Part shown: positions 22,827 through 64,000 of the stretch, in pieces | Layout of the letters: each line of letters opens with the position of its first letter | Position numbering within the stretch: position 1 is the first letter of the stretch | Assembly: GCA_046563655.1 (NCBI GenBank) | Contig: CM102283.1 | Span: forward strand, 62,001-126,000 | DNA from: Yuukianura sp. NJ FZ-2021 | Taxonomy: Eukaryota | Length of the DNA: 64,000 nucleotides | Direction of reading: 5' to 3' | Notes under the pieces: generated by a model | The model's input: only the letters and a program-made list of their open reading frames with translations | What the model was told of the DNA's origin: nothing | The model's database searches: none | Made by a program: the position numbers and the translations under genes

Positions 22827-23960
22827 ATTGCACTCCGATATTTTGCTTCTGAAAGCCCATCTGAAGTCAACCGATCTCAATTTTTGTCCAAAAAATCAAT
22901 TTTGTTCATTGAAAACTCCCCAAAAAGTCATTCTGAGCTATCTGAGAACTGAAAATTGCACTCCGATATTTTGACTCGGAAAGCCCATCTGAAGTCAACC
23001 AATCTCAATTTTTGTCCAAAAAATCAATTTTGTTCATTGAAAACTCCCCAAAAAGTCATTCTGAGCTATCTGAGAACTGAAAATTGCACTCCGATATTTT
23101 GCGTCGGAAAGCACATCTGAAGTGAACCAAGCTCAATTTTTGTCAAAAAATTCATTTTTTTCATTCAAAACTCCCCACAAAGTCATTCTGAGCTATCTGA
23201 GAACTGAAAATTGCACTCCGATATTTTGCTTCTGAAAGCCCATCTGAAGTGAACCAAGCTCAATTTTTGTCAAAAAATTCATTTTTTTTCATTCAAAACT
23301 CCCCAAAAAGTCATTCTGAGCTATCTGAGAACTGAAAATTGCACTCCGATATTTTGCCTCGGAAAGCCCATCTGAAGTGAACCAAGCTCAATTTTTGTCA
23401 AAAAATTCAATTTTTTCATTCAAAACTCCCCAAAAAGTCATTCTGAGCTATCTGAGAACTGAAAATTGCACTCCGATATTTTGCTTCGGAAAGCCCATCT
23501 GAAGTGAACCAAGCTCAATTTTTGTCAAAAAATCCATTTTTTTCATTCAAAACTCCCCAAAAAGTCATTCTGAGCTATCTGAGAACTGAAAATTGCACTC
23601 CGATATTTTGCCTCGGAAAGCCCATCTGAAGTGAACCAAGCTCAATTTTTGTCAAAAAATTCATTTTTTTCATTCAAAACTCCCCAAAAAGTCATTCTGA
23701 GCTATCTGAGAACTGAAAATTGCACTCCGATATTTTGCGTCGGAAAGCACATCTGAAGTGAACCAAGCTCAATTTTTGTCAAAAAATCCATTTTTTTCAT
23801 TCAAAACTCCCCAAAAAGACATTCTGAGCTATCTGAGAACTGAAAATTGCACTCCGATATTTTGCCTCGGAAAGCCCATCTGAAGTCAACCAATCTCAAT
23901 TTTTGTCCAAAAAATCAATTTTGTTCATTGAAAACTCCCCAAAAAGTCATTCTGAGCTAT
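22827..23960. repeat. 127-bp satellite (block 2, about 9 monomers)
   Basis: Same monomer resumes at attgcactccg (22827) and runs to ...tctgagctat (23960). Confidence 0.98.
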
Positions 23961-26098
23961 TATTATTATTATTATTATTATTTCGTTTATTTATCCCATT
24001 CCAGATAGGTTTTTCAAAACAAACGTTGTGAAGAATTAACTTAGAATACAATTAAGTTCTTAGCCTTAAGTGGATTGAAATTGAAATATTTGCAATTGTG
24101 TAGGGAATTTTTGTATAGAATAGTTAAGAATGAAGTTGTTACTAAAAAATTGAAATGATTAAAATACTTAAAGTAAAAGGTTGAAATGAAATTGACACTA
24201 AATGAATTTTTTCTTCGGAATTGCATCTTTCTCTTTGGCTTGGACTTCCTTTTCTTGGGTTGATAGAAGGTGTTCACGGAGTGCTTTTTTGAATTTGTTT
24301 CTGAGTGTGACATCTGCAATCTCCTCAGGTAAACGAAACCATAGTTTTGACGCCCTGGATTTGAATGAACGAGGGTGCAGGATTTTGGAATATGCTCCGG
24401 ACCGAGTTGTGACTGTACCTCCTGCATTTGACGAAAATATTCGATGAAGTATGGGGGGCACTGAGATCGTTGAATGTCATATGCCAGCATGAGTGCTTTG
24501 AATTCGTGTAGTTGATTTGGGAAAAGCCATTTCAGTTCTTTAGTCGTTTGGAGTTTGACTTGTTCGAATTTCTTCTTTTTGAGTGTGAAGCGGCTAGCGC
24601 TTCGGATTACTTTTTCGAAATTCTTCAATGATTTTTTTTTAGAAGTTCCCCAAATTTCAGACATGTAAGAAATTTTCGAAAGTACGTAAGACATCATTAG
24701 TACTCTACGATTTTGCATCGAAAGTATATCCTGCATTGGGTATAAAGAGACAATCACATGGAAGCATTTTCTGTAAGTAGCACTTATGTGATTATCCCAA
24801 CTGAGTCCGTCATCTATGATGAGTCCCATGCTGGTGATGGAATCTTTAGTTTTCAAAATTACATTTTCGATTGAGAATTCCAAGCCATCCGCAAATTTTT
24901 TGATGTTTGGTTTTGCGACGATCATGATGCTGGTTTTTTCTGGGTGTAATGTAAATTTGTTTTTTGACATCCATTCCGCGATGAATGATGAGCAGGTCTC
25001 CACTTTTCGTTTAAAATCATTGATGTTGTGGGGATCCCCTTTAACAACTAATGTATTGTCATCTGCGAAAAGGGCAAGAAATTCTTCGAACTTTTCATAA
25101 AATTCTACCAGAAGATCGTTGATCATTAGTGCGAACAATATGGGGGACAGAATTCCTCCTTGCGGTGTACCTCTTGTAGTGAAACGTATTCTGGATGCGT
25201 TACCGTTGGATGATACAAACTGTCCACGTTCACTAAGGTAAGATTTAAACCACTCTGACGGAATTCATACCATTTCAGCTTTTCCAATAGAATTTCTCGA
25301 TCTACGGTGTCAAATGCTTTTCGCAGATCTAAAGCTATCACAGCGCTGATTTTATTTGATTGGAAGTTGGAATAGAGGTGATCAGTTAGGGCTATTTGGG
25401 CATGCGTAGTTGAGTGACCTTCACGGAATCCAAATTGATTGCAGTGGATAATGTTGTTTCTTTTGACGTGTTTTGTTAGTTTTGAAAGACAATTCGTTCC
25501 ATTATCTTCGAAAATACTGGCAAGATCGAGATGGGTCTGAGATCGTTAGGTGAGGTGGGGGTGTTGCACTTTGGAATTGGGATCACTTTTGCTAACTTGA
25601 GACAGATCGGGATTTGTGACTCGCTAAAACTAGAGTTGATGACATCTGAAATACTTTCACTCGAAATTTGGAGCGTAAATGCACAAGTCAATCATTTTTG
25701 GGGGCGATTCCGGTTGCGTCTTCGGTTTTTGATTCAAAAAATTCTTCATAATTTTCCAGGCTTCTCTAACTTCGTGTGCATCAGTGCTTAATTCCAGTTT
25801 TTGGTATTTTGGAAGATTGCTTGGTTTTTGAACAATAACTTCACCTTCGTGTATCTTGGAACTAATTTCAATGAGAAAATCGTTTATTTTGTTTGCTTCT
25901 AAGTCGAGTTTGAGGGAGGTCTTTTTCTTGAATGTGCAGAAATTTTGTACTGTCTGGTGTATTCCTGCCTTTGCTATCGTTGCATTAAATGTGTTCTTTG
26001 TGTCACAATTGATTGCATATCGTAATTGCTTCTTCATTTCTTTTAGTTGAAGGATTACCTGATCTGTCTTTATTTTTGCACTGAGAAGTTTCTTTCGA
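23961..26098 (-). mobile_element. CR1-group LINE, 5'-truncated, copy 2, with (TAA)n tail
   Basis: Near-identical to copy 1. RT catalytic motif LFADD in ORF 24041-25138; ORF2 ends KKKFI* at 24198; 3' UTR about 215 bp; (TAT)8 run at 23958-23982 reads as a (TAA)n tail on the minus strand. Confidence 0.95.
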
Positions 26099-27976
26099 AA
26101 ATTGCACTCCGATATTTTGCTTCTGAAAGCCCATCTGAAGCCAACCGATCTCAATTTTTGTCCAAAAAATCAATTTTGTTCATTAATAACTCCCCAAAAA
26201 GTCATTCTGAGCTACCTGAGAACTGAAAATTGCACTCCGATATTTTGCTTCTGAAAACCCATCTGAAGTCAACCAATCTCAATGTTTGTCCAAAAAATCA
26301 ATTTTGTTCATTGAAAACTCCCCAAAAAGTCATTCTGAGCTATCTGAGAACTGAAAATTGCACTCCGATATTTTGCCTCGGAAAGCCCATCTGAAGTGAA
26401 CCAAGCTCAATTTTTGTCAAAAAATTCATTTTTTTCATTCAAAACTCCCCAAAAAGTCATTCTGAGCTATCTGAGAACTGAAAATTGCACTCCGATATTT
26501 TGCTTCTGAAAGCCCATCTGAAGTGAACCAAGCTCAATTTTTGTCAAAAAATCCATTTTTTTTCATTCAAAACTCCCCAAAAAGTCATTCTGAGCTATCT
26601 GAGAACTGAAAATTGCACTCCGATATTTTGCTTCTGAAAGCCCATCTGAAGTAAACCAAGCTCAATTTTTGTCAAAAAATTCATTTTTTTCATTCAAAAC
26701 TCCCCAAAAAGTCATTCTGAGCTATCTGAGAACTGAAAATTGCACTCCGATATTTTGCTTCTGAAAGCCCATCTGAAGTCAACCAATCTCAATTTTTGTC
26801 CAAAAAATCAATTTTGTTCATTGAAAACTCCCCAAAAAGTCATTCTGAGCTATCTGAGAACTGAAAATTGCACTCCGATATTTTGCCTCGGAAAGCCCAT
26901 CTGAAGTAAACCTAGCTCAATTTTTGTCAAAAAATTCATTTTTTTCATTCAAAACTCCCCAAAAAGTCATTCTGAGCTATCTGAGAACTGAAAATTGCAC
27001 TCCGATATTTTGCTTCTGAAAGCCCATCTGAAGTCAACGAATCTCAATTTTTGTCCAAAAAATCAATTTTGTTCATTGAAAACTCCCCAAAAAGTCATTC
27101 TGAGCTATCTGAGAACTGAAAATTGCACTCCGATATTTTGCTTCTGAAAGCCCATCTGAAGTCAACGAATCTCAATTTTTGTCCAAAAAATCAATTTTGT
27201 TCATTGAAAACTCCCCAAAAAGTCATTCTGAGCTATCTGAGAACTGAAAATTGCACTCCGATATTTTGCTTCTGAAAGCCCATCTGAAGTCAACCAATCT
27301 CAATTTTTGTCCAAAAAATCAATTTTGTTCATTGAAAACTCCCCAAAAAGTCATTCTGAGCTATCTGAGAACTGAAAATTGCACTCCGATATTTTGCTTC
27401 TGAAAGCCCATCTGAAGTCAACCAATCTCAATTTTTGTCCAAAAAATCAATTTTGTTCATTGAAAACTCCCCAAAAAGTCATTCTGAGCTATCTGAGAAC
27501 TGAAAATTGCACTCCGATATTTTGCTTCTGAAAGCCCATCTGAAGTCAACCAATCTCAATTTTTGTCCAAAAAATCAATTTTGTTCATTGAAAACTCCCC
27601 AAAAAGTCATTCTGAGCTATCTGAGAACTGAAAATTGCACTCCGATATTTTGCTTCTGAAAGCCCATCTGAAGTCAACCAATCTCAATTTTTGTCCAAAA
27701 AATCAATTTTGTTCATTGAAAACTCCCCAAAAAGTCATTCTGAGCTATCTGAGAACTGAAAATTGCACTCCGATATTTTGCTTCTGAAAGCCCATCTGAA
27801 GTTAACGAATCTCAATTTTTGTCAAAAAAATCAATTTTGTTCATTGAAAACTCCCCAAAAAGTCATTCTGAGCTATCTGAGAACTGAAAATTGCACTCCG
27901 ATATTTTGCTTCTGAAAGCCCATCTGAAGTCAACCGATCTCAATTTTTGTCCAAAAAATCAATTTTGTTCATTAAT
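26099..27976. repeat. 127-bp satellite (block 3)
   Basis: Monomer repeats between LINE copy 2 and the SINE. Confidence 0.98.
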
Positions 27977-28429: not shown

Positions 28430-30128
28430 ATTTTGTTCATTAATAACTCCCCAAAAAGTCATTCTGAGCTATCTGAGAACTGAAAATTGCACTCCGATAT
28501 TTTGCTTCTGAAAGCCCATCTGAAGTCAACCAATCTCAATTTTTGTCCAAAAAATTAATTTTGTTCATTGAAAACTCCCCAAAAAGTCATTCTGAGCTAT
28601 CTGAGAACTGAAAATTGCACTCCGATATTTTGCCTCGGAAAGCCCATCTGAAGTGAACTAAGCTCAATTTTTGTCAAAAAATTCATTTTTTTCATTCAAA
28701 ACTCCCCAAAAAGACGTTCTGAGCTATCTGAGAACTGAAAATTGCACTCCGATATTTTGCCTCGGAAAGCCCATCTGAAGTGAACCAAGCTCAATTTTTG
28801 TCAAAAAATTCATTTTTTTCATTCAAAACTCCCCAAAAAGTCATTCTGAGCTATCTGAGAACTGAAAATTGCACTCCGATATTTTGCTTCTGAAAGCCCA
28901 TCTGAAGTGAACTAAGCTCAATTTTTGTCCAAAAAATCAATTTTGTTCATTGAAAACTCCCCAAAAAGTCATTCTGAGCTATCTGAGAACTGAAAATTGC
29001 ACTCCGATATTTTGCATCGGAAAGCCCATCTGAAGTGAACCAAGCTCAATTTTTGTCAAAAAATTCATTTTTTCATTCAAAACTACCCAAAAAGTCATTC
29101 TGAGCTATCTGAGAACTGAAAATTGCACTCCGATATTTTGCTTCTGAAAGCCCATCTGAAGTGAACCAATCTCACTTTTTGTCAAAAAATTCATTTTTTT
29201 CATTCAAAACTCCCCATAAAGTCATTCTGAGCTATCTGAGAACTGAAAATTGCACTCCGATATTTTGCTTCTGAAAGCCCATCTGAAGTCAACCGATCTC
29301 AATTTTTGTCCAAAAAATCAATTTTGTTCATTAATAACTCCCCAAAAAGTCATTCTGAGCTATCTGAGAACTGAAAATTGCACTCCGATATTTTGCTTCT
29401 GAAAGCCCATCTGAAGTCAACGAATCTCAATTTTTGTCCAAAAAATCAATTTTGTTCATTGAAAACTCCCCAAAAAGTCATTCTGAGCTATCTGAGAACT
29501 GAAAATTGCACTCCGATATTTTGCGTCGGAAAGCACATCTGAAGTAAACCTAGCTCAATTTTGTCAAAAAATTCATTTTTTTTATTCAAAACTCCCCAAA
29601 AAGTCATTCTGAGCTATATGAGAACTGAAAATTGCACTCCGATATTTTGCTTCTGAAAGCCCATCTGAAGTCAACGAATCTCAATTTTTGTCCAAAAAAT
29701 CAATTTTGTTCATTGAAAACTCCCCAAAAAGTCATTCTGAGCTATCTGAGAACTGAAAATTGCACTCCGATATTTTGCTTCTGAAAGCCCATCTGAAGTC
29801 AACCAAGCTCAATTTTTGTCAAAAAATCAATTTTGTTCATTGAAAACTCCCCAAAAAGTCATTCTGAGCTATCTGAGAACTGAAAATTGCACTCCGATAT
29901 TTTGCTTCTGAAAGCCCATCTGAAGTTAACGAATCTCAATTTTTGTCAAAAAAATCAATTTTGTTCATTGAAAACTCCCCAAAAAGTCACTCTGAGCTAT
30001 CTGAGAACTGAAAATTGCACTCCGATATTTTGCTTCTGAAAGCCCATCTGAAGTCAACCAATCTCAATTTTTGTCCAAAAAATCAATTTTGTTCAATGAA
30101 AACTCCCCAAAACGTCATTCTGAGCTAT
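28430..30128. repeat. 127-bp satellite (block 4)
   Basis: Monomer repeats between the SINE and LINE copy 3. Confidence 0.98.
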
Positions 30129-53067: not shown

Positions 53068-53167
53068 NNNNNNNNNNNNNNNNNNNNNNNNNNNNNNNNN
53101 NNNNNNNNNNNNNNNNNNNNNNNNNNNNNNNNNNNNNNNNNNNNNNNNNNNNNNNNNNNNNNNNNNN
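53068..53167. other. Assembly gap (100 N)
   Basis: Exactly 100 N, typical of a scaffolding gap of unknown size, so adjacency of the two sides is not shown by sequence. Confidence 0.99.
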
Positions 53168-53215: not shown

Positions 53216-53773
53216 CAGAGCATTTTTGATTACTCCAAAATTGTAATTGATTACAGATTACAAGATTAGTTCATGAAAACTGTAATCAATTACAATTACA
53301 GATTATGATTACATGTAATCGTAATCATAATCAAATTTTGTAATCTGTAATCGGTAATCAAATTCTTAAGCTAAGACTACAGATTACTTTTGACTTTAAA
53401 AACACATGCAAATTTAGAAAAAGTGTATAAAGAATTGCCAGAAACGGTGTTATAATTGCATTATTTACAAACATGTTAACTCATGCAAGGCAAGTGACAC
53501 TGTATTTACTGTATTTTCCATAATAAAATTTGATTTGCATGTACAAAAATGACATTTGCGTCGTATTTATGAAAAATTCGGTAATCAATGTAATCTAAAT
53601 TTGAAAAACCGAATTTGATTACCAATTAGGATTACTGGTCAGTAAAATTTGTAATCAATTACAGCATGATTACAGATTACTCTAAGGGGTTTGATTACAG
53701 ATTACAGATTATTAATCTGTAATCATAATCCAGATTTGATTATGATTAAGTAATCATATTCAAAAATGCTCTG
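53216..53773. mobile_element. Non-autonomous hAT-type DNA transposon (MITE), 558 bp
   Basis: Perfect 14-bp TIRs CAGAGCATTTTTGA (53216-53229) and TCAAAAATGCTCTG (53760-53773); 8-bp TSD ctactgaa (53208-53215, 53774-53781); dense subterminal GATTAC/GTAATC motifs; no ORF. Confidence 0.92.
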
Positions 53774-55257
53774 CTACTGAATTTGAAATTGAACACAAAA
53801 AAATGAGTCCAACAATTAGCTTTTACCCTGCACCCTTCACGTCTTCACATAAGGGCATTTTTAAAAAATTCAAACAAAAGACATTTAAGTGAACTGCAAA
53901 GAATCCGCTCAAACCTAATTGGTTTTAATTAAACTAATTAAGATTAAAAAAAGTTTTGATTATTTGATGTTGATTTCCATTAATTTCATTAATTTGTTGT
54001 TTCTACTGATTTTATTTAGGGTTAAATCCAACATGTAGTGTTCCCAAAATTGGCGCAGGTAAGAAGATGTTTGTGGCCGCCAGAGTTACCCATGCGCTAC
54101 TCAAAATTCTTCTATGACTCTGAATTCAAATCTAATTCAATCGATTAATTAACTAAAAGCAAAGTTAATTGGATATGACAATTAAAAACAACTGAAGAAG
54201 AGACAGATGCTGTTTGTTTACATAAGGAAACTGTGTCTCCTCTGCTTTCATTTCTCGTATGAGATCACAAAAGTGAATGAAAAGAATTTGCTGAGCTTCC
54301 CTTTTATATGAGAGACGAAAGGAGTAGAACGAAGGAAGATTTTACTCTTTTGGAGTTGGATGGTGGGGGAGGGAATGGGTGGCAATGGAAAAAATGCTTG
54401 TGGGGACCATCCCAACTCCAAACCCCCCAACTAACAAACATTTTGAGTGAAAAAACGGAGAAAGTTCCACAGATCAGGCAGAATCTATTGGAGTTCACTC
54501 CACTTCAATTTTATTTTGGTTTTTGAACACCAAACTCACATCTTCTGCATGTGGTTTCGATTCTTAAATCTAAAGTAAAAGTTCTATAAACTTTTTTCAA
54601 TTTCACTTTTTTTGCTTCTTTTCCCCAAACTTTCTTTGTACTTTTTTTTATGAAAGTTAAAAATGAATTTTTCATGTTATTTATCCGAAAACAGAACTAA
54701 AAAGGCCAATTAATGCCAAAATTGCTATTTTTTTCTTGTGAAGAAACAGAAAAGACAGTCGTATCAATTTTCTTGTGCAAAATGTCATTTGTGATGATTT
54801 TCCATCATCATTTCGTCAGAATAACTTGAATTTTTTGAGTGTGAAAATCACAGAAAGTTGCTGAGAACAGGGAGAGCCCGTATGAGTTGACTCCACTTTA
54901 TTTTCAGATTGTGTTTCGTCCACTCTCAAAACACAAATTCTCCGCACATTTTCTCTTCTCCAAACAAAATCGAAACAAAATCAAAGGTTAAAAGCTTTCC
55001 AATTTCACTTTCTTTGCATTATTTTCACCAACTTTCTTTGTAATTTTAGTTTCCATTCGAAAATTCACTTTAATTGAAATCTAAGCGTGGAAAATGAAAG
55101 TTATGTTGAAAAAACTGTTTCTTGTTGTGAACAAATATGGACTACAATAGTGAAAGTTGTTTCACTCTGATCAGCCGCCATTTTGAGTGCCAGATTAATC
55201 GTTAAAGACCTCACAATTTGCACAACTTTCCAATTGGCGAAACAACTTTCTCCTTGA

Positions 55258-56490
55258 AAGTGTTTTCGATGTATTTCCGATTCCTCCCGTATTTCCCTTA
55301 GCGAAGTTAAAGTCGTTCCCAGATCCTCCAGCACTAGCGATCTGTCTGTCGTTTGTTGTCCCTTTGGTTTTTCCGTCGCTCTTGTTCCCTCCAGTCCCGA
55401 AGCTGATGATTTCAGCAGTTCTGAGTTTGCCCCGATTGTCCCTGGCCATATTGTAGGTGGACTTGTCCTTGAGCAAGAGTGTTCCCCCGTCCCTGTAGCA
55501 CCTTCAAGTGTTGTTCCGGCCGAGATTCCGCCAGTGACCATTCCAGATCCCCCAACGGTTCCCTCCAGTTGCGATTCTGCAGTTCCCAAGACCCAAAAGA
55601 AGAAGAAAAAGCCCCAGAAGCCCCGTTCCCAACGTTCAAGAGCATGCCCCTCAGACAAGTTCCCTCCTGGTTCCCAAGTCATATGTAACCTTTCCAGCAA
55701 TGGAAAGAGTTGCATCGGCTCTTCCCCTTGGCACGGTCCCTACCTTGTTGATAGCGCTCTCGCCAGCGACAGTGTTGCCATTGTCAACCTGCCTGGTTAC
55801 CCTTCATTTTATGAATGGGTGAACGTTTCCCACCTTGAACTTGTCGCTTCCACTCCCAAAACTTCAGTCGCAGCTTCCGTCCCTAATCCAAACGAGCTCC
55901 CTGCCCCAGTTGACGTCTCCACATTCCCCGAATGGTCCCTTGGCGATGACCCTGACCCCTTCATCCAACGTGCCCGCTTGATGGCTGAAGCGGATCACCC
56001 CAATCTCACGGAAGCAGAATACGCAGCAAACATTGTATCCTGGCTCGACATACCGCTAATTCCCTACTTTACGAGAGACGCAGAAACGGAAGATTCGATT
56101 CGACGACGTCTCCTCACACTTAACCAATATCCGGACTCTCCACCTTCGTACGACACTTGGAAATCCCTCATGTCAATGGAATGTCTCCCCTGTCCCCCTC
56201 GAGAGCAGTTTGGCGACTACAACTTATCGTGGGATTCTGATGAAGACATTTGCTCTGACGACTCTGACCAGTACTTCAGTTCGGTTGAAGATTCCTCATC
56301 CCTAGCGAGTGACAATGTCTCTCGTTCCCCAAGTCCCCCACAGCACACTGGAAGTATCCCTCTCCCTAGCCATCATGGTTCTGCCCCCGTCCCCACCCGT
56401 GATACTGGATATCCCCGAAAACGCAAGAAGCAGACTGGCTATTTCCGTGCACTCACATTGTTAGAAATTAAGGTTAATTTTAATTATTGA
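55258..56490 (+). CDS. Orphan open frame (stop-to-stop 55258-56490), probably retroelement-derived, with an integrase C-terminal GPY/F (SH3-fold)-like module
   Basis: Frame stays open upstream of the called GTG (55534) back to TGA 55255-55257; first in-frame ATG is only at 55981. FPPGSQV...PWHGPYLV...LPG...VNVSHLEL fits the GPY/F module pattern; the rest is Pro/Ser/acidic-rich. Confidence 0.5.
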   Translation, partial: KCFRCISDSSRISLSEVKVVPRSSSTSDLSVVCCPFGFSVALVPSSPEADDFSSSEFAPIVPGHIVGGLVLEQECSPVPVAPSSVVPAEIPPVTIPDPPTVPSSCDSAVPKTQKKKKKPQKPRSQRSRACPSDKFPPGSQVICNLSSNGKSCIGSSPWHGPYLVDSALASDSVAIVNLPGYPSFYEWVNVSHLELVASTPKTSVAASVPNPNELPAPVDVSTFPEWSLGDDPDPFIQRARLMAEADHPNLTEAEYAANIVSWLDIPLIPYFTRDAETEDSIRRRLLTLNQYPDSPPSYDTWKSLMSMECLPCPPREQFGDYNLSWDSDEDICSDDSDQYFSSVEDSSSLASDNVSRSPSPPQHTGSIPLPSHHGSAPVPTRDTGYPRKRKKQTGYFRALTLLEIKVNFNY

Positions 56491-57244: not shown

Positions 57245-57659
57245 TGTAGCACCTCGTGCTACGTAAAACTGCCAAAGATGGCCTCAGACAAACGATCCGA
57301 GCACTGCCGGACTCATGCAACAAACTGAGGAACCAAAGAACACCAATGAAACAACACGAAGACAACACAAAGACACGAAGACAAATAAATATAAAATATA
57401 TTTATTTGTACAAAAGATACAAAGTCTTCAGCTCATGCTGAGACACACACCAAACACCGACTGACTAGCACAACTAGTCTCAATACTCTCCTGACTCTCC
57501 TCTACCACGCTAACTCTACTCAAAACTCGCGCTAAGCGCTAAACCAAATCTCACTAACGCTAAAACTAAACCATAACCTAACTACACTAACCTAAGGCCA
57601 CTCCCTAACCTCAAGGGGCAATTGACCCTAACCTAAAGGGGGAAAACCGGGGAACTACA
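57245..57659 (-). repeat. 3' LTR (415 bp)
   Basis: Minus strand starts TGTAG (57659) directly after the PPT and ends CTACA (57245), a 5-bp terminal inverted repeat; AATAAA at 57406-57401 followed by a GT-rich tract. The partner LTR is not in the window, so the distal boundary is inferred. Confidence 0.82.
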
Positions 57660-57672
57660 CCTTCCTCCTTCT
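57660..57672 (-). promoter_or_regulatory. Polypurine tract (plus-strand primer)
   Basis: Minus strand AGAAGGAGGAAGG immediately precedes the LTR's TG and overlaps the ORF3 TAG stop. Confidence 0.88.
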
Positions 57673-59683
57673 AAGGAGCGGGTTCCGGGGAATTCCTCGG
57701 GACACGATCTTCCGCCTCCTCCGCTTCTCTGGCTGCACGGTCTGCTTCTCGTTGCAAACGCTCTTCCTCGGCACGAATACGCTGATTCCGACGACGATTC
57801 ATGTTGAGCCGTCGCCTCCGATGACGTTTCCTAGCCTCTGCTTCCGGCAAATGACGAAATCGGCAAAACATCACATCAGTATGCCGCTCGCTTCCACAAT
57901 GGGGACAGTTTCTCCGATCTCGCCGATCTCTTCGGTCGGCTGCAGCTACTTCCTGAGGCTCCTCCTCCATCGCATCCATCGCTTCCTGGGGATCTTCCTC
58001 TGGTACTTGTGGTTCGTGAACCACATTCGGATCATCTTCTTGTGGTAATCCTACCACTTCACGTAGGTCATCTTCAGAAACGGTGACGATCAGCATCTCA
58101 CCGTCATCGCTGTCACTAAATTCCTGGACGTTGCACTCCACTTCCACTTCCGAATCAGCAACTTGGTCCGCTAATGGTTCGTCAGAAACGTCTGACAGAT
58201 CGGAAACATCCGATAAACCATCAATGTCAACAGGCACTGGAGCACTAATATTTACATTTTGGGAAGTCGTTTGTGCGACTTCCGCCTCCATCCTGGCAAT
58301 ATCTTCTCTTGTGACTGGCGTATCCCAGTCGAAAGCCGACAAATCTAAAGTCACCTTTTGCACTGTAGCAGGAACATTAGCACTTTTGGAAGTTGATTGA
58401 GCAACTTCCTGTTCCATTCTTTGTACATCTTCTTTAGTGATTGGTGTATCCCAATCAAACACCGATAAGTCCAGAGTCACTTTTTGCACTGTAGAAGTTG
58501 TAGCACCAACTTCTGTGACTCCGCCCACCACTTTTTTAGACACAAAATCTTCAAGTAGCATCTCCAACTGACCAAATGACAAAACATTTTTGCCAATCAC
58601 TCTTTCAATGTCCAACCTATTTTTAGGCCCTTCCTTGACCAATTGAGCACAAGTAACATCAGCAATGACTTCTTTTGGTTGAACGTCCAATTCCCTGGCA
58701 ACCAAGTCTCTCCAGCCGACAACTTGCTCCATCACACTTACACTTAAAGTGGGCATGTCCACTTTAGCCAGAATCTCACGGGCACTTAGATGAGGCTTAA
58801 ACTTGTAGACTTTTAAGCACAAATCGTTACATAGTTTGACAACCTCATTCCACTTAACACTTTCACTTTTGAAGTCATAACGTTGCTTCATGACTTCAAA
58901 CACACGTAAAAAATGTGTGTCACTCCTGGCGTATTGTAGCATGTCTGGATGCTTGTTTTCAATTGGACGGATCCTAAAGTCAGCAAGTTGACAATCCTTG
59001 CTCACTTTCACACCAGGCAAGTAGTCACTAATCACTTTGTCCAATCCACGTCCTTGAGTCCCTCCAAAGACAGAATCCACGATTTGAGTGTCAATTACAC
59101 CCACGAAGAAGATATGGTAATGAAGCTGGAACATGAGTAGGTCATTAACACTTCCATGTAGAATCTTGATGTAGTTGCCATTGGAGAAGATTTCCCTCAG
59201 CATTTGCATCTGGATTGGCACTACGAATGGATCAATGATGTAATCCGATTCTTGGGTCGAAATCTGCAGTACACAAACATAACGATCACGATATCCCTTG
59301 TCATGACTAAACTCCATGTCCACACTGATAACTCGTTCTGCTCTTAAGCAACCCAACATTACCATGAACTTTGCTTCTGTGTCGATAATGCGAATAGGAA
59401 CATATGATCTCTGGTCAGCAATTTTTTCCTTAGACGGCTCCATGACTGCATCCCACAACCGAAACACTTTCACTAGCGACGTGTGAGGATGATACTTGTA
59501 CGGAAATTCATCCCATGAATTCCGTTGAGCAGATTCAAATAAAAACATGTCCTTACGTTCCTGTGGACTCTTATCAGCCGTACCATACTTTAGTTCGCAT
59601 TCACGCCTCTTCTTCCAGTAATCTTGAGTTTTCTTTTTCTTTCCACTGACTGGAACCACATCACTAACAACGGATGATGGCAT
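57671..59683 (-). CDS. ORF3: RRP6/EXOSC10-like DEDDy 3'-5' exonuclease + HRDC, with low-complexity C-terminus (670 aa from first ATG)
   Basis: ExoI ISVDMEF, CVLQIST..DYIID, ExoII KILHGSVND, QLADFRIRP, ExoIII YARSDTH, HRDC-like GWRDLVARELD. First ATG at 59683; frame open from 59743. Confidence 0.92.
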   Translation of the reverse strand: MPSSVVSDVVPVSGKKKKTQDYWKKRRECELKYGTADKSPQERKDMFLFESAQRNSWDEFPYKYHPHTSLVKVFRLWDAVMEPSKEKIADQRSYVPIRIIDTEAKFMVMLGCLRAERVISVDMEFSHDKGYRDRYVCVLQISTQESDYIIDPFVVPIQMQMLREIFSNGNYIKILHGSVNDLLMFQLHYHIFFVGVIDTQIVDSVFGGTQGRGLDKVISDYLPGVKVSKDCQLADFRIRPIENKHPDMLQYARSDTHFLRVFEVMKQRYDFKSESVKWNEVVKLCNDLCLKVYKFKPHLSAREILAKVDMPTLSVSVMEQVVGWRDLVARELDVQPKEVIADVTCAQLVKEGPKNRLDIERVIGKNVLSFGQLEMLLEDFVSKKVVGGVTEVGATTSTVQKVTLDLSVFDWDTPITKEDVQRMEQEVAQSTSKSANVPATVQKVTLDLSAFDWDTPVTREDIARMEAEVAQTTSQNVNISAPVPVDIDGLSDVSDLSDVSDEPLADQVADSEVEVECNVQEFSDSDDGEMLIVTVSEDDLREVVGLPQEDDPNVVHEPQVPEEDPQEAMDAMEEEPQEVAAADRRDRRDRRNCPHCGSERHTDVMFCRFRHLPEAEARKRHRRRRLNMNRRRNQRIRAEEERLQREADRAAREAEEAEDRVPRNSPEPAP

Positions 59684-59713
59684 GATGGAAGTCAGGAAAT
59701 GACTTCCAAAACA

Positions 59714-59730
59714 CTGAAAAAGAATAACTG
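59714..59730 (-). promoter_or_regulatory. Candidate splice acceptor for a subgenomic ORF3 mRNA
   Basis: Minus strand cagttattctttttcag|tg lies between the pol stop (59744) and the ORF3 ATG (59683). Confidence 0.45.
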
Positions 59731-59743
59731 AACAGAGCACGTT

Positions 59744-62700
59744 TTAGTTTCTGTATCCAGCGAGTGTGCGATAGTTGAGCCGAACTTTTTTCCTCAAAGT
59801 TCTTCCTCCAGAGTTCGCTTCCTCCTCCGAGTCCGACCAATCCTCTGACTTAGTGGGAATTTTCGGAACCGCAAACTGCGACGTGCGAACAGTATAAGGC
59901 TTCAACTCCGACACATGACGCTTTCCAAAATTAGTTTTTTCAGGCAATGTCACAAGTTTGAAGGTCACTGGGGTTAACACTTCACTAATTTGGTATGGAC
60001 CAATGTAACGAGGGTCTAATTTTTTAGCAATTCCTTTCTTCTTGTCTGACAACGAATGATTTTTAATAAGCACTAAATCACCAACTTGAAAGTTTCCTTC
60101 TTGATGTTTAGAGTCATAATGCTTGATATTATGCTCATGTGCTTCTTCCATGTTCTTCCTCACGAACTGAATAATTTCTTCTAATTGAGCAGGCAGAAGT
60201 CCTAACTTCCGGACTTCCCTGTCACCATCACTTTGTAAGTTCCTATCAAGGGGCAGCGGAATCTCACGACCTAAATTTAGTAACGCAGGAGTCACTTTAG
60301 TAGTCGAATGGACAGAAGTTCTAAGAGCCAATGCGAACTTCTGGAGATGCTGGTCCCATGATCTATGATTCTTGTCGACATAAGCCTGCAGCATAGGCTT
60401 AAGGTTCCGATTGACCCTTTCAACTGTGTTAGCTTGCGCATGGTACGGACTTACAGGAACATGGTTGATCTTCCAGTCCTTAGCCATTTTAATCATCACT
60501 TTAGATAAAAATTGGCTTCCATTGTCCGACACAACTGTTTTCGGAGTACCATAACGACAAAAAATTTCATTCACTAACACTTCCACAACTTTTTTCGATT
60601 TTGCCTTCCGCATCGGGAATAACTCCACCCACTTGGATAAATCGTCTTCCACGACGAACAAATACTCATTTTGATTTGAAGATCTTGGCAGTGGTCCCAG
60701 AAAATCAATGTAGATTTTCTCAAACACTTTAGTTGGAGGTGACACTGCTTGTAATAATCCAAAGGGCTTGTAGTTGCAAGACTTGACTGCTTGGCAAACT
60801 GGACACGATTTCACATAATCACTGATGTCCTTATTCATGTTTTTCCAGAAAAATCTTCTCTTGATTTTCACTTTTGTGGCTTTGATGCCAAGATGCGCTG
60901 CTTCTGGCACATCATGAAGTAACTTCATTATTTCGGGTATCATGACCCTTGGTACCACTGGCACCTGAATGAGCTCACTTTTACGAGCTGAGGAACTGCT
61001 GAACTCTTTTTTGTCAACGTCCTCTCGAGTGATGTCGGAAGATTGAGGCCTCGTTTCCGCACACCGCCCCTCGATAATGTCTCCGCAGAACCCATTATCG
61101 GAATAGAAGTCAAAGCCTTTGACTTCTCTGCCTAGTACGCCATTCTCTAGGACGTAACTTCTAACACTTTTACCACTTTCGATGTCACTGATCACTTTCA
61201 CTAAATCAGGATCCTTTCGTTGTTCGTCTTTCATCTTCTGGATCGTAGGAGTATCAAACGACAGTAACGCCATGGCCATTGGCGAGTACATGTACGCCGG
61301 GGAATCATCTTCAAAATCGAGATCCGCTTCATCGACAGGAACTGGAGCCCGTGAAAGCGCGTCCGCCTCCACATTATCCTTCCCGGAGCGATGCTTGATC
61401 TCGACACCCCATGACTTGATCTCCGTATCTCACAAAGCCAATTTTGCTTTCCGCTCCTTCATCTTGTTGAGGAATGATAAGGCTTTGTTGTCAGTTATAA
61501 TTGTGAACTTCTGACCTTCAATGTATTCTCTGAGCTTCCGGTAGGCCCAAATAATCGCGAACAACTCTTTTTCGTAAATGTGGTACCGAATTTCTGATTT
61601 TCGGAGTGTTTTACTGATAAACATCACTGGTCTCTCCACACCATTAATCACTTGAGTTAAGGCCGCACCCAACCCATAATTCGACGCATCACACTTTAAC
61701 AAAATCGGATGGTCGTAGTCAACTGCATGTAACATCACATCGTTGCACATTGACTCTTTTAATGACTGGAACGACGTCTCCTGTTCTTCTCCCCAAACCC
61801 ACGGTTGATTTTTTCTTAGAAGTCGGTACAGTGGCTCTGCCTTTGCAGCAAAATGTTCAATAAATGGAGCATACCACTGAGTCATTCCATGGAAACTTTG
61901 CACTTCTTTGACGTTCTTCGGAGTAGGGAAATCCACTATGGCACTCACTTTTTTAGGACACTTTTGTAGACCATGTTCTGTCAAACGATGGCCCAACACA
62001 TCAACCTCTCTCCTACAACACTGTAACTTTTGAGGACTAATGGTGAGTCCCGCCATCTTCAACCTACTTAGCACTTTTTCTAAATGCAATAAATGTTCAT
62101 CCAGAGTCTTACTGAACAAAATGATATCGTCCATGTAGCACTTTGCAAAATTGGAGAATCCTTGGATGACTTTCCGCATCAACTGCTGACACGTCTTTGG
62201 ACTATTTTTTAATCCGAATGGCATCACCAGGAACTCATAATGGCCATCTTGAGTCACGAACGCTGACTTTTCAACACTGTCCGGATGCAACTTGACTTGC
62301 GAATAACCTTTCGCAAGATCAATCACTGTGTACCAATAACCAGCAGGAATTGTGTGTAAAATAGAATGAGCACTCTCCATTGGCGCAGCATTCGTCTTCG
62401 TTTGCTGGTTGAGCAACGTATAGTCCACACAGAGTCTCTTACTGCCGTCTTTCTTTGGTACCACCACAACTGGAGCTGCATATGGTGACCTTGAAGGTCT
62501 GATTAGACCTTCCTTCAACATTTCTTGAATTTGATCATTGATGATCTTCTGCATTTCTGGTGACCTTCTGTAGGGGTTCCTTGCCGGTGGACACCCTTCA
62601 TCTTCTATCACATGATGAGTCAGGTCCGTCCTTCCCAACTTTCCATCACTCCGGACGACCGTTGGAAATTTCTCTAGGACACGCTGAACTCTCACTTGCA

Positions 62701-63204
62701 CTTCACTATCTTGATTGTGACTTTCTGGTAAAGCCACTGAGAACAACGCAGTACCGGTTGTTTCTGTAGTGGAAGTCAACTTGAATTTCTGACTTCCATT
62801 GTCACCAAACCAAAATTCTTTACTTTTCAATCTAATTACAATGTCGTGCTGAAAACAAAAATCAGAACCTAACACACACTTAACTGGCAAACCCTCCGCC
62901 ACATAGAACTTTGACTTCAAAGTTCGACCACCAATTTTTATATACACAAAACAGAAGCCAATGAGACGCAGCTTCTGACTATTCATCATCGTTGTAGACT
63001 TATTTTTTAATGGAACTACAACTGACTGCAACTTTTCACATAACTGTACATCAATGAGTGACTGCGAACATCCCGTGTCGAAAATAGCCAAAAATTTCGA
63101 ATCTTCATTCGCCACAGTCACAAAAGGAATTAAATCGTCCGAAACTTGAATTAGGTAAGGGTGAATGATGGACGACTTCTCATTCACCACTGCGCGTTTA
63201 ACTT
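59744..63204 (-). pseudogene. pol: pol (protease, RT, RNase H, integrase) interrupted by one in-frame TGA at 61430-61432
   Basis: PR IFDTGCS; RT SPYAAPVVVVPKKDGSKRLCVDY, MPFGLKNSP, YMDD; RH CDASNYGLGAAL, EKELFAI, TDNKAL; IN HHCC, IDFLGP, SDNGSQF, VERVN, GPY. ORFs 61430-63190 and 59744-61372 are the same frame (KLAL*DTEIKSWGVEIKHRSGKDNVEADALSR). Confidence 0.93.
63132..63202 (-). promoter_or_regulatory. -1 programmed ribosomal frameshift signal (G_UUA_AAC plus predicted H-type pseudoknot)
   Basis: Slippery heptamer at 63202-63196 in gag phase; 7-nt spacer; 9-bp stem GGUGAAUGA/UCAUUCACC; loop UCGUCC is complementary to downstream GGACGA (63140-63135). Confidence 0.8.
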
Positions 63205-63999
63205 CTCATTAGAAGTCGACGCTTCATTTTTTTCAGGTGGCTCCTTCTTCTTTTTTGGGACTGGAGGTCCTTGAGGGACCTCCTCTTGAAATGACCCCAA
63301 GGCCAAACCAACACCTGATGGACACTGAAACTTACGATGCCCAAAACCATTACACTTGAAGCACTGAACATCACTTACATCTTGCCTGGAGGTCTGACCT
63401 TGACCTCTGCCTTGACCACCACCACGGTCGTTGTCATTTGAAGAACCACGATTACCACGGTAACCGCCCTTCCCACGTGCAGATGATTCATGTTGAGGCT
63501 GCACTGAATTCTTGTCATAATTGGATTTTGAACTTTGACCTTGTGACTGTTCATTGGGTTGAGATGAGGAATGTCCACTGTTCGGACTTCCATTGGTCTG
63601 AGATTGATCACTGGAATAATTCTTGTAGCCATTTCCCTTGCCTTTCCAGTGTCCACGGAAGCCATTATTTTTGGCTTCCTTCCCACGAAACCAATTATTC
63701 CCATTGGAAGTTCCAGCAGAACTTCCAGCATTCGAATTAGTGGAATTATCATCTTTCTTGACTGACTCTGACTTTGAGTCGACCTTGACAATTGGAGGTA
63801 ATCCGAATTTGTTTTTTGTGATTCTGTCTTCTGCTGTCAAATTAGCATGAGCAATTCTACATGCATCAAAAAGTGATTCCACTGTGTCGAATTGTTGAGT
63901 TCCTAGGGCTGTGCGAATCCTCGGATTCAAACCTAATTTAGCACGTAACACTGCATCAGCCACTGACTCATGTGGATAAATTAATCTGGAGCACCGAAC
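63184..63999 (-). CDS. gag: gag, C-terminal part (frame open to the window edge)
   Basis: Zinc knuckle CFKCNGFGHRKFQC (CX2CX4HX4C) preceded by an N/S/G/Q-rich linker; no stop between 63963 and the window end. Confidence 0.92.
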   Translation of the reverse strand, partial: VRCSRLIYPHESVADAVLRAKLGLNPRIRTALGTQQFDTVESLFDACRIAHANLTAEDRITKNKFGLPPIVKVDSKSESVKKDDNSTNSNAGSSAGTSNGNNWFRGKEAKNNGFRGHWKGKGNGYKNYSSDQSQTNGSPNSGHSSSQPNEQSQGQSSKSNYDKNSVQPQHESSARGKGGYRGNRGSSNDNDRGGGQGRGQGQTSRQDVSDVQCFKCNGFGHRKFQCPSGVGLALGSFQEEVPQGPPVPKKKKEPPEKNEASTSNEKLNAQW

Positions 64000-64000
64000 C

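Follow-up and report, generated by a model that had tools for sequence, protein, structure and literature searches.

The nuclear RNA exosome includes a distributive 3'-5' exoribonuclease, RRP6/EXOSC10, the PMC2NT domain of which binds Rrp47/C1D. Gag and pol are usually regarded as all that an LTR retrotransposon requires, and extra enzymes in such elements are rare and informative. A DEDDy exonuclease has been named as a known accessory domain of LTR retrotransposons (PMC6338049), and Rodriguez et al. (2017, Viruses 9:78; PMC5408684) describe DEDDy exonuclease ORF3s in LTR retrotransposons of bdelloid rotifers. The exonuclease-like third open reading frame (ORF3) of the element analysed here had been put forward in the initial annotation as possibly new cargo for an LTR element, a claim which, given these accounts, was too strong. 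Outside rotifers, the literature search found no report of an exonuclease ORF3 that resembles RRP6 or bears a CCHC knuckle, and the words 'exonuclease' and 'ORF3' were absent from a 2026 eLife survey of gypsy elements that carry env.

ORF3 and the surrounding Ty3/gypsy element

The window, that is, the whole stretch of 64,000 nucleotides that was analysed, carries the element on its minus strand and stops within gag, so that the 5' LTR, at coordinates above 64000, the primer-binding site (PBS) and the target-site duplication lie outside it. Pfam searches and the ORF list identified the 3' part of gag (63184-64000), the frame of which exits the window and which includes a CCHC zinc knuckle (zf-CCHC, E = 8.8e-4, 19.7 bits, slightly under the cutoff of 20.8). 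According to the ORF coordinates, pol follows in the -1 frame relative to gag. Its first part (61433-63190) encodes an aspartic protease (Asp_protease_2, 1.3e-5), a reverse transcriptase (RVT_1, 3e-31) and RNase H (RT_RNaseH_2, 8e-32) and is broken in the RNase H tail by a lone in-frame TGA (61430-61432), past which the integrase part resumes in the same frame (59744-61429). The latter consists of an H2C2 zinc finger (Integrase_H2C2, 2e-20), the rve core (5e-14) and a Tf2-1-type SH3 domain (SH3_Tf2-1, 1.9e-9), and terminates at a TAA (59746-59744). The domain order of gag followed by PR-RT-RNase H-IN is that of Ty3/gypsy elements (Metaviridae). An assembly gap is present in the window at 53068-53166.

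ORF3 takes up all of the space from the integrase stop to the polypurine tract. Immediately behind the integrase TAA, the minus-strand frame opens at 59743; it runs to a TAG at 57673-57671 and gives 670 codons from an ATG at 59683 (57671-59683); an alternative start, a GTG at 59740, would give 689 aa. The TAG overlaps the polypurine tract, the purine run AGAAGGAGGAAGG (57660-57672), and TG comes next, opening a proposed 3' LTR of 415 bp (57245-57659) with inverted TGTAG...CTACA ends and an AATAAA at its position 254. A polypurine tract adjoining a TG...CA LTR is likewise characteristic of Ty3/gypsy elements, although the far boundary of this LTR is proposed from the inverted ends alone. The initial annotation had described an uninterrupted 670-aa frame after the integrase stop, with its TAG over the polypurine tract, and had placed it inside the element at the site of env. 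Both points were confirmed by the ORF list and the sequence itself, with the integrase TAA on one side of ORF3 and the polypurine tract and LTR on the other.

Codon usage further connected ORF3 with the element. The relative synonymous codon usage (RSCU) of ORF3 correlated with that of pol at r = 0.74 (59 codons), compared with 0.12-0.18 for a LINE ORF of the same window, and by this measure ORF3 and pol are one unit.

Domains and predicted fold of the ORF3 protein

A DEDDy 3'-5' exonuclease domain was assigned to residues 98-259 (58907-59392) from the Pfam match and the alignment with yeast Rrp6. The PF01612 match was strong (E = 9.9e-25, 87.8 bits against a cutoff of 23.6), and all five catalytic residues, D122, E124, D181, Y251 and D255, were present and aligned with the yeast Rrp6 motifs. 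An HRDC-like helical domain follows, with helices at approximately residues 301-387 (58523-58783) and a Pfam match at 317-364, which at 18.7 bits fell under the cutoff of 23.8. The domain was nevertheless accepted as HRDC on the combined basis of phmmer alignments to RRP6 chains that extend through this region to residue ~356, the helical bundle in the predicted model and its superposition, and HRDC matches over the Pfam cutoff in four relatives (P0003, P0004, P0073 and P0154). On the model, ORF3 thus has an HRDC domain after its exonuclease domain, as in RRP6, despite the sub-cutoff score.

The AlphaFold (AF2) model had pLDDT values >85 at residues ~11-385 and >90 in the active-site region, and it superposed in Foldseek on RRP6 catalytic cores across 332-349 columns. 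Only RRP6 structures stood in the top ranks against the PDB, among them that of T. brucei (5e-21, TM-score 0.70); TM-scores for RRP6 structures were 0.62-0.70, normalised to the target. The order agreed with that from phmmer, RRP6 standing above RNase D in both: yeast RRP6 matched at 5e-27, human EXOSC10 at 6e-21 and E. coli RNase D at 5e-7, and all 13 PDB matches at E <= 2.4e-20 were RRP6/EXOSC10 chains. A fold search of BFVD returned only giant-virus or phage exonucleases or DNA polymerases, at 3.6e-8 or weaker, and no reverse-transcribing virus. No Pfam envelope family matched in ORF3.

Only ~97 residues stand ahead of the exonuclease domain. PMC2NT (PF08066) was not found in ORF3 or in nine scanned family members, while the control, a canonical RRP6 (P0002), scored 1.7e-31. 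Past residue 400, BLASTP gave no match among 151 representatives that included canonical RRP6s, which in so poorly conserved a region is a weak test. The initial annotation had read the frame as an RRP6/EXOSC10-like nuclease with an exonuclease plus HRDC layout, a full set of DEDD-Y residues and an N-terminus too short for PMC2NT. These points were all borne out by the profiles, alignments and fold matches, as were its motif positions (D122/E124 at 59320-59312, Y251 to D255 at 58933-58919) and its placement of the HRDC-like WRDLVARELD, W324 of which lies at 58714.

In the C-terminal part of ORF3, an acidic linker is followed by a CCHC zinc knuckle and then by a basic helix. The linker contains two tandem 126-nt (42-aa) repeats (58234-58485) which are 73% identical, have low pLDDT and are predicted to be disordered; each includes the acidic Trp motif FDWDTP, and acidic-W motifs are present in relatives as well. 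The knuckle, C593-x2-C596-x4-H601-x5-C607 (57863-57907), was found by regular expression and was not mentioned in the initial annotation. A knuckle at the equivalent site was found in the same way in 15 of the 23 family members described below (ORF3 and 14 relatives), and two more have one with a longer spacer, as aligned by eye. The Arg/Lys-rich C-terminal segment (residues ~608-660, 57704-57862) was modelled as a helix at 614-660 with block pLDDT values of 88-96, and basic tails occur in relatives too.

Family, linkage and alternative readings

The short N-terminus was common to 22 of the 151 representatives examined, making 23 proteins with ORF3. In an unrooted IQ-TREE phylogeny of 65 rows, these 23 lay on one side of a branch supported at 100/100, with 42 canonical or long-N proteins on the other, and ORF3 did not group with cellular RRP6. 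The nearest protein among 1.84 billion representatives was 35-36% identical and was a member of this family, not a canonical RRP6. A broad homologue search with ORF3 gave, from candidate lists limited to about 8000 entries, only the canonical RRP6 P0002 and none among the longer proteins; the list was probably crowded by the low-complexity tail, and it has no bearing on fused forms. The named hosts of the family were springtails only, the other members coming from metagenomes. ORF3 is thus part of a distinct and deeply diverged family. The earlier proposal of a captured host nuclease stands as to the relationship with RRP6 and needs to be modified in that the host gene was not captured recently, given the 35-36% identity of the nearest relative and the 100/100 clade.

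A second linkage to integrase was found in Orchesella dallaii, where an automatic gene model (P0007) joins the C-terminus of an integrase directly to a family exonuclease, in the order seen in the window. Residues 3-137 of this protein matched residues 368-498 of the window integrase with 33% identity (E = 2e-22); it was the only one of the 151 representatives with integrase homology. A metagenome scan with the family member P0008 yielded two loci with flanks, L001 and L002, neither of which had a reverse transcriptase, integrase or LTR beside the exonuclease gene, so the family is not tied to gypsy elements everywhere. The exonuclease gene of L001 is adjoined by a coiled-coil ORF, and the only tandem repeats in the two loci were of 27-29 nt, 32 nt, 42 nt and ACTA. 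No match was obtained in viral contigs scanned singly with P0008, P0005 and P0042, or in genome contigs scanned singly with P0010 and P0048. Separately, a 1386-aa Orchesella protein (P0154) was rejected: it has no pol homology, and the gene model joins an exonuclease ORF to a long hydrophobic protein.

The occurrence of the family away from gypsy pol, and near a coiled-coil ORF in L001, recalls the multi-ORF Terminons and bears on a reading that is possible but doubtful, in which ORF3 is a further member of the retroelement DEDDy pool of bdelloid rotifers (the LTR elements Juno and Vesta, and Athena/Terminon). In PMC5408684, RNase D-like DEDDy ORF3s lie downstream of pol and are common to LTR and Penelope-like elements, their clusters are distinct from those of cellular Rrp6, RNase D, WRN and mut-7, and the Vesta2 and Vesta5 ORFs contain a Cys-His-Cys motif. 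The same paper, however, has these ORFs identified by sensitive HHpred searches, whereas ORF3 finds yeast Rrp6 by plain phmmer, and it gives their motif as DEED, whereas the canonical DEDD is kept in 20 of the 23 proteins here. The hosts named here are also springtails only, the two groups being compared by their descriptions.

ORF3 is in frame with integrase, a single TAA dividing them, and together with the uninterrupted Orchesella fusion this would fit an exonuclease that belongs to Pol as a C-terminal domain, the integrase stop being either read through or a defect of this copy. This is decidedly unlikely. A shared frame is expected one time in three by chance, and the fusion is an automatic gene model. 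Among the 22 relatives, 21 start with Met, and in 20 of them this lies a few residues ahead of a conserved N-terminal motif; the exceptions are P0007, which starts in an integrase tail, and P0063, which was aligned without its first residues. ORF3 itself starts at a separate ATG, which has A at -3 and lies downstream of a pyrimidine tract ending in CAG (ttattctttttcag, 59714-59727) that resembles a splice acceptor. This tract sits 30 nt upstream of the ATG with no intervening ATG, and the 20 codons from the TAA to the ATG, which it characterises, are unconserved. No contig bridging the integrase-ORF3 junction was present among the pieces listed.

The catalytic pentad was intact in 20 of the 23 proteins (ORF3 and 19 of its 22 relatives), and among those keeping it, identity to ORF3 averaged ~25%, with a range of about 21-32%. 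EXD1 and Maelstrom are inactive DEDD relatives, and a comparable role can be envisaged for ORF3 as a non-catalytic RNA-binding or decoy protein that titrates surveillance factors or binds RNA without cutting. The missing exosome-binding parts, the predicted RNA-binding knuckle and the loss of catalytic residues in three of the 23 proteins are in keeping with this. The retention of all five residues across such divergence nevertheless argues against a pure decoy, as does the high confidence of the modelled active site, and the idea is considered highly improbable.

ORF3 was covered by contigs from four runs, representing two organisms and two studies, in several variant forms. In some contigs, 119 nt of ORF3 were replaced by 15 other letters, so some copies of the element have decayed. 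Among the 16 ORF3 variant sites with the best support, seven were synonymous and nine non-synonymous (1234 more sites were recorded across the whole stretch), a 7:9 split that does not demonstrate constraint within the genome. Contig depth was higher in LTR bins than in internal bins, summed contig depth being a measure of coverage and not of copy number. That ORF3 is a functionless piece of host RRP6 recently and accidentally captured by one lineage, or an assembly chimera, is scarcely credible: RRP6 is its closest cellular protein and the window does contain an assembly gap (53068-53166), but its nearest relative is a family member only 36% identical, its clade is separate at 100/100, its codon usage is like that of pol, it recurs in four runs from two organisms and it ends exactly at the polypurine tract.

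Proposed role and comparison with known systems

The explanation preferred overall, with a probability of about 80%, is that ORF3 is a genuine Ty3/gypsy gene for a competent exonuclease derived from the RRP6 core and belonging to an old, selected family. Its product would be a Mg-dependent DEDDy 3'-5' exonuclease, predicted to be catalytically competent, that arose from the catalytic core of eukaryotic RRP6/EXOSC10 (N-terminal linker, exonuclease domain and HRDC). This product would have lost the PMC2NT domain and the C-terminal tail, through which RRP6 is attached to the exosome, and would have the acidic Trp-containing linker, the CCHC knuckle and the basic helix instead. The family is likely to be old and under selection, in springtails and in the organisms behind the metagenomes. 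Translation of ORF3 would probably be from a spliced subgenomic mRNA in the manner of env, via the acceptor-like site 30 nt before the ATG.

The knuckle and basic tail probably bind RNA, and the protein may trim or degrade RNA 3' ends without the exosome, to the benefit of the element. As a rough division, the element's own RNA or primer, through the processing of 3' ends or the clearing of template in the particle, and host silencing RNAs or their precursors are each given slightly more than a third of the weight as substrate, other candidates, including single-stranded DNA, taking the rest. A bolder and rather unlikely proposal is that exosome-free RRP6 cores with a nucleocapsid-like knuckle form an old family travelling with retroelements across distant invertebrates, possibly the same as the bdelloid pool, and serve the element in counter-defence, as a nuclease destroying the 3' ends of precursors of small RNAs or of other surveillance RNAs directed against it. 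If true, this would be the first case of a retrotransposon encoding an enzyme that suppresses silencing.

The conservation of the active site across so deeply diverged a family implies that selection maintains a nuclease step in the life cycle of these elements, either in replication or against host silencing, which is not known to have been characterised. The cargo is a recognisable part of the RNA-surveillance machinery of the cell, predicted to be released from the exosome and equipped with a knuckle for RNA binding. Its catalytic core is compact and well modelled and is suited to expression and assay.

Compared with known systems, the best match in both sequence and fold is RRP6/EXOSC10, with which ORF3 shares the N-terminal linker, the DEDDy exonuclease domain, the HRDC domain and the D-E-D-Y-D residues. 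It differs in lacking PMC2NT and, as far as the weak BLASTP test can tell, a detectable C-terminal exosome-associating region, and also in its separate clade, its encoding by a mobile element and its CCHC knuckle. For the combination of exonuclease and knuckle the nearest counterpart is kinetoplastid RNase D; the solved T. brucei enzyme presumably carries a CCHC finger. That enzyme (PDB 7c42-7c4c; fold E = 1.9e-8) would likewise combine a DEDDy exonuclease with CCHC outside the exosome, and in an Atlas cluster from Euglenozoa 100% of the members carried PF01612 and 61% zf-CCHC (score 0.80, a lead only). The kinetoplastid RNase D is, however, a cellular gene without HRDC-type RRP6 kinship and is a far weaker match than RRP6, and the shared architecture is probably convergent.

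By analogy, the env genes of errantiviruses and retroviruses resemble ORF3 in their site after integrase, their end at the polypurine tract and, probably, expression from a spliced subgenomic mRNA. ORF3 differs from them in having no match to a Pfam envelope family and in its predicted fold, which is that of a soluble RRP6-like nuclease.

The closest mobile counterparts are Juno and Vesta. As described in PMC5408684, these also have a third ORF after pol, at the env position, that encodes a DEDDy 3'-5' exonuclease of the RNase D/RRP6 superfamily without transmembrane or coiled-coil env features, and with Athena they place the exonuclease ORF in different kinds of genetic context. Judged by these descriptions, ORF3 is set apart by its recognition as RRP6-like in a simple search and its DEDD-Y residues, as opposed to HHpred identification and DEED in the bdelloid ORFs, and by its HRDC domain, CCHC knuckle, basic tail and springtail hosts. 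The rotifer observation of 2017 is thereby extended to other animals.

The gypsy element and its setting

The end of the window is occupied by a Ty3/gypsy retrotransposon on the minus strand. From open reading frames and Pfam matches, its components were assigned as gag (63184 to the window end, carrying a CCHC knuckle), protease, reverse transcriptase and RNase H (61433-63190) and integrase (59744-61429, stop codon TAA at 59746-59744); relative to gag, pol is read in the -1 frame. A single in-frame TGA at 61430-61432 breaks pol in the RNase H tail; apart from this, the visible part of gag, the protease-reverse transcriptase-RNase H segment, the integrase and ORF3 are all open, so this copy looks young but not intact. 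Right after the integrase TAA the ORF3 frame is open, and its ATG at 59683 starts a protein of 670 residues that ends at a TAG (57673-57671). This stop codon shares bases with the purine run AGAAGGAGGAAGG, next to which TGTAG starts a proposed LTR of 415 bp (57659 down to 57245, minus strand) that ends in CTACA and has AATAAA inside; the 5' LTR, PBS and target duplication fall beyond the window. The initial annotation had placed ORF3 inside the element, and the sequence reading agrees, with ORF3 lying between the integrase TAA and the purine run and proposed LTR. Every motif coordinate given there was also correct when checked against the sequence. Codon usage of ORF3 followed that of pol (r 0.74) and not that of a LINE ORF also present in the window (r 0.12-0.18).

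Four public sequencing runs, three from one sample and one from another organism and study, yielded contigs that covered all of the element, ORF3 included, and showed many variant letters. In two of the runs, X1 and X2, one contig form had 15 other letters in place of 119 nt of HRDC-coding ORF3 (window 58676-58796), and at least one deleted ORF3 variant is thus present within the organism of these runs. Together, the variant letters and the deleted form indicate that the element is repeated and that some copies have decayed. Among the 16 variant sites with the best support in ORF3, 7 were synonymous and 9 non-synonymous.

A satellite of 127/128-bp units (matching at 93-96%) takes up approximately 45 kb (1-20689 and 32326-53067, also 22827-23960, 26097-27973 and 28430-30128), its array being interrupted at 20.7-32.3 kb by non-LTR (LINE-type) reverse transcriptase fragments. 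As the gypsy element lies directly past this array, the region looks like heterochromatin or pericentromere-like. A run of N (assembly gap, 53068-53166) separates the satellite from the unique-looking or repeat region preceding the element. There, a cluster of short inverted repeats of GATTACAGATTAC-like units (53239-53761) resembles a MITE or foldback element. The segment 54283-54643 and its surroundings (53900-55300) belong to another, much commoner repeat with many joints, whose summed contig depth exceeded that of the gypsy element by a factor of about 5-15 in each of the four runs. A plus-strand Ser/Pro-rich ORF of 318 aa (55534-56490), located about 750 bp past the proposed LTR end at 57245 and lacking any Pfam match, may belong to another element.

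Sequence and predicted fold of the ORF3 protein

The Pfam scan of ORF3 returned DNA_pol_A_exo1 with an E-value of 9.9e-25 and HRDC, the helical domain after the exonuclease domain, at 18.7 bits, under its cutoff of 23.8. When all PDB sequences were searched with phmmer, the 13 matches with E ≤ 2.4e-20 were without exception RRP6/EXOSC10 chains (yeast RRP6 5e-27, T. brucei 2e-25, human 6e-21), while E. coli RNase D scored just 5e-7. The RRP6 alignments started upstream of the exonuclease domain and reached the HRDC region at residue ~356, with D122, E124, D181, Y251 and D255 of ORF3 aligned to the RRP6 catalytic residues.

The protein was modelled with AlphaFold2 from the family alignment; the model was confident for residues ~11-385 (block pLDDT mostly 85-98) and disordered for ~388-590, confidence returning at a long basic helix (614-660). 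In a Foldseek search of the PDB with this model, RRP6 catalytic cores ranked top, led by T. brucei (5.4e-21, TM 0.70 by target) and followed by yeast and human, with RNase D (6e-14) and Nibbler (3e-10) lower. Among predicted viral structures, the fold search found exonucleases of giant viruses and phages alone, none with a better E-value than 3.6e-8. The RRP6-like layout of a DEDDy exonuclease plus HRDC that had been proposed is therefore upheld by the Pfam domain, by the alignments into HRDC and by the Foldseek ranking.

The Pfam scan found no PMC2NT, the Rrp47/C1D-binding domain whose absence had been suspected. The C-terminal half contains an acidic stretch, a zinc knuckle of the form C-x2-C-x4-H-x5-C (residues 593-607) and an Arg/Lys-rich tail. 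ORF3 is a gene within the element, and the catalytic core that it encodes is of RRP6 type, with its active site complete; the product lacks the Rrp47/C1D-binding domain and has no detectable exosome-binding tail, carrying instead the knuckle and basic helix, features of a nucleic-acid-binding kind.

Most family members conserve an acidic-Trp motif, D/E-x-W-D/E (for example FDWDTP and DDWESP), in their disordered linker (family alignment columns ~640-680); in ORF3 two tandem 42-aa repeats (58234-58485, minus strand) double it. A partner protein may dock at this short motif.

Relatives of ORF3 and their carriers

ORF3 residues 1-440 were searched exhaustively with HMMER against 1.84 billion representatives, yielding 4467 proteins at E ≤ 1e-3, 12 of them at ≤ 1e-30. 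The top matches were proteins of 340-810 aa that matched from the N-terminus, not canonical RRP6; the closest among the matches listed was P0003 (1e-68, 36% identity over 392 residues). A CCHC knuckle after the exonuclease was present in ORF3 and in 14 of the 150 matches listed, with a longer-spaced version in two more.

For the tree, 65 rows were used: ORF3, the 14 knuckle proteins, 10 with a match starting near the N-terminus, and 40 of the 81 long-N proteins (alternate ones); the rows left out were 37 whose layout was intermediate or partial and 9 with an aligned span below 220 residues. In the tree from the careful IQ-TREE run, ORF3 and 22 others were split from all 40 long-N proteins and two short ones (P0017 and P0068) by a branch supported at 100/100. 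ORF3 and these 22 proteins form a separate group; the tree is unrooted and gives no direction of descent. The much greater similarity to RRP6 than to RNase D points to descent of the family from eukaryotic RRP6. Its members share 21-32% identity with ORF3, and 20 of 23 retain all five catalytic residues (the exceptions being P0005, P0010 and P0029). HRDC exceeded the Pfam cutoff in P0003, P0004, P0073 and P0154, and PMC2NT was found in none of the nine members scanned, the canonical control P0002 being positive at 1.7e-31.

Family members came mostly from metagenome or run assemblies, the named hosts being two springtails, Orchesella dallaii (P0007, P0073, P0154) and Allacma fusca (P0086). The first 137 residues of P0007 matched the C-terminal part of the window integrase (33% identity, E 2e-22), directly followed by the exonuclease. 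P0007, an automatic gene model, thus appears to show the same integrase-exonuclease order in a second organism; among 151 representatives, no other showed integrase homology. The sole flanked family loci examined, on metagenome contigs L001 and L002, carry P0008 and an 80% identical relative. No reverse transcriptase, integrase or LTR was found in their flanks, indicating that the family is not bound to gypsy elements everywhere.

The two contigs have a region of about 8 kb in common (L001 5646-13524, L002 3276-10313; 70-81% identity), in which the family exonuclease, truncated, is accompanied by ORFs for a C2H2-finger and a coiled-coil protein, a further ORF of ~360 aa and 27-29-nt palindromic tandem repeats. 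This region may be a different carrier of the nuclease family.

Proposed function and comparison with rotifer elements

The ORF3 protein would be an active 3'-5' exoribonuclease independent of the exosome. Translation from a spliced subgenomic mRNA is suggested by a pyrimidine tract that ends in CAG 30 nt upstream of the first ATG, this ATG having A at -3. Production by read-through or as a Pol fusion is a minority possibility, favoured by ORF3 being in the integrase frame with one TAA between. The knuckle and tail might guide the protein to RNA, perhaps to genomic RNA of the element inside the particle, and the selected benefit could lie in processing the 3' ends of the element's RNA or primer or clearing these molecules, or in destroying host silencing RNAs. 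That the family represents counter-silencing nucleases borne by retroelements and spread across invertebrates is improbable. The kept catalytic residues argue against a pure decoy. In yeast, rrp6 deletion is reported to lower Ty1 mobility 14-fold, making host RRP6 a Ty1 cofactor, an effect put down by its authors to 60S ribosome biogenesis (PMC4673737); a need of an LTR element for host RRP6, perhaps an indirect one, thus exists, with only loose relevance to ORF3. The ORF3 protein is open to assay.

The element is an LTR retrotransposon with a real and conserved DEDDy exonuclease ORF3. The initial interpretation is supported in part: it holds as to an RRP6-type exonuclease gene in an LTR element; the suggestion that such cargo might be new does not, as exonuclease ORF3s are already described from rotifers (PMC5408684). 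In the published literature searched, no RRP6-like or knuckle-bearing exonuclease ORF3 was found described outside rotifers. By the published description, the closest precedent is that of Rodriguez et al. 2017 (PMC5408684), in which most bdelloid Juno and Vesta LTR retrotransposons have an ORF3 for a GDSL lipase or an RNase D-like DEDDy exonuclease, and the same ORFs are present in Athena/Terminon elements; the finding is restated as established by Arkhipova 2017 (PMC5718144) and in PMC6338049. The bdelloid DEDDy ORFs were found by HHpred, have DEED and group away from cellular Rrp6, RNase D, WRN and mut-7 (PMC5408684), whereas ORF3, compared with them as described, is overtly RRP6-like, with DEDD-Y kept, an HRDC and a C-terminal CCHC knuckle. 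The named hosts also differ, being springtails for the ORF3 family and bdelloid rotifers for Juno and Vesta. The family genes of L001 and L002, away from gypsy pol, recall the bdelloid ORFs reported as common to several retroelement types. That the ORF3 family and the bdelloid DEDDy ORFs are one is possible but rather unlikely.
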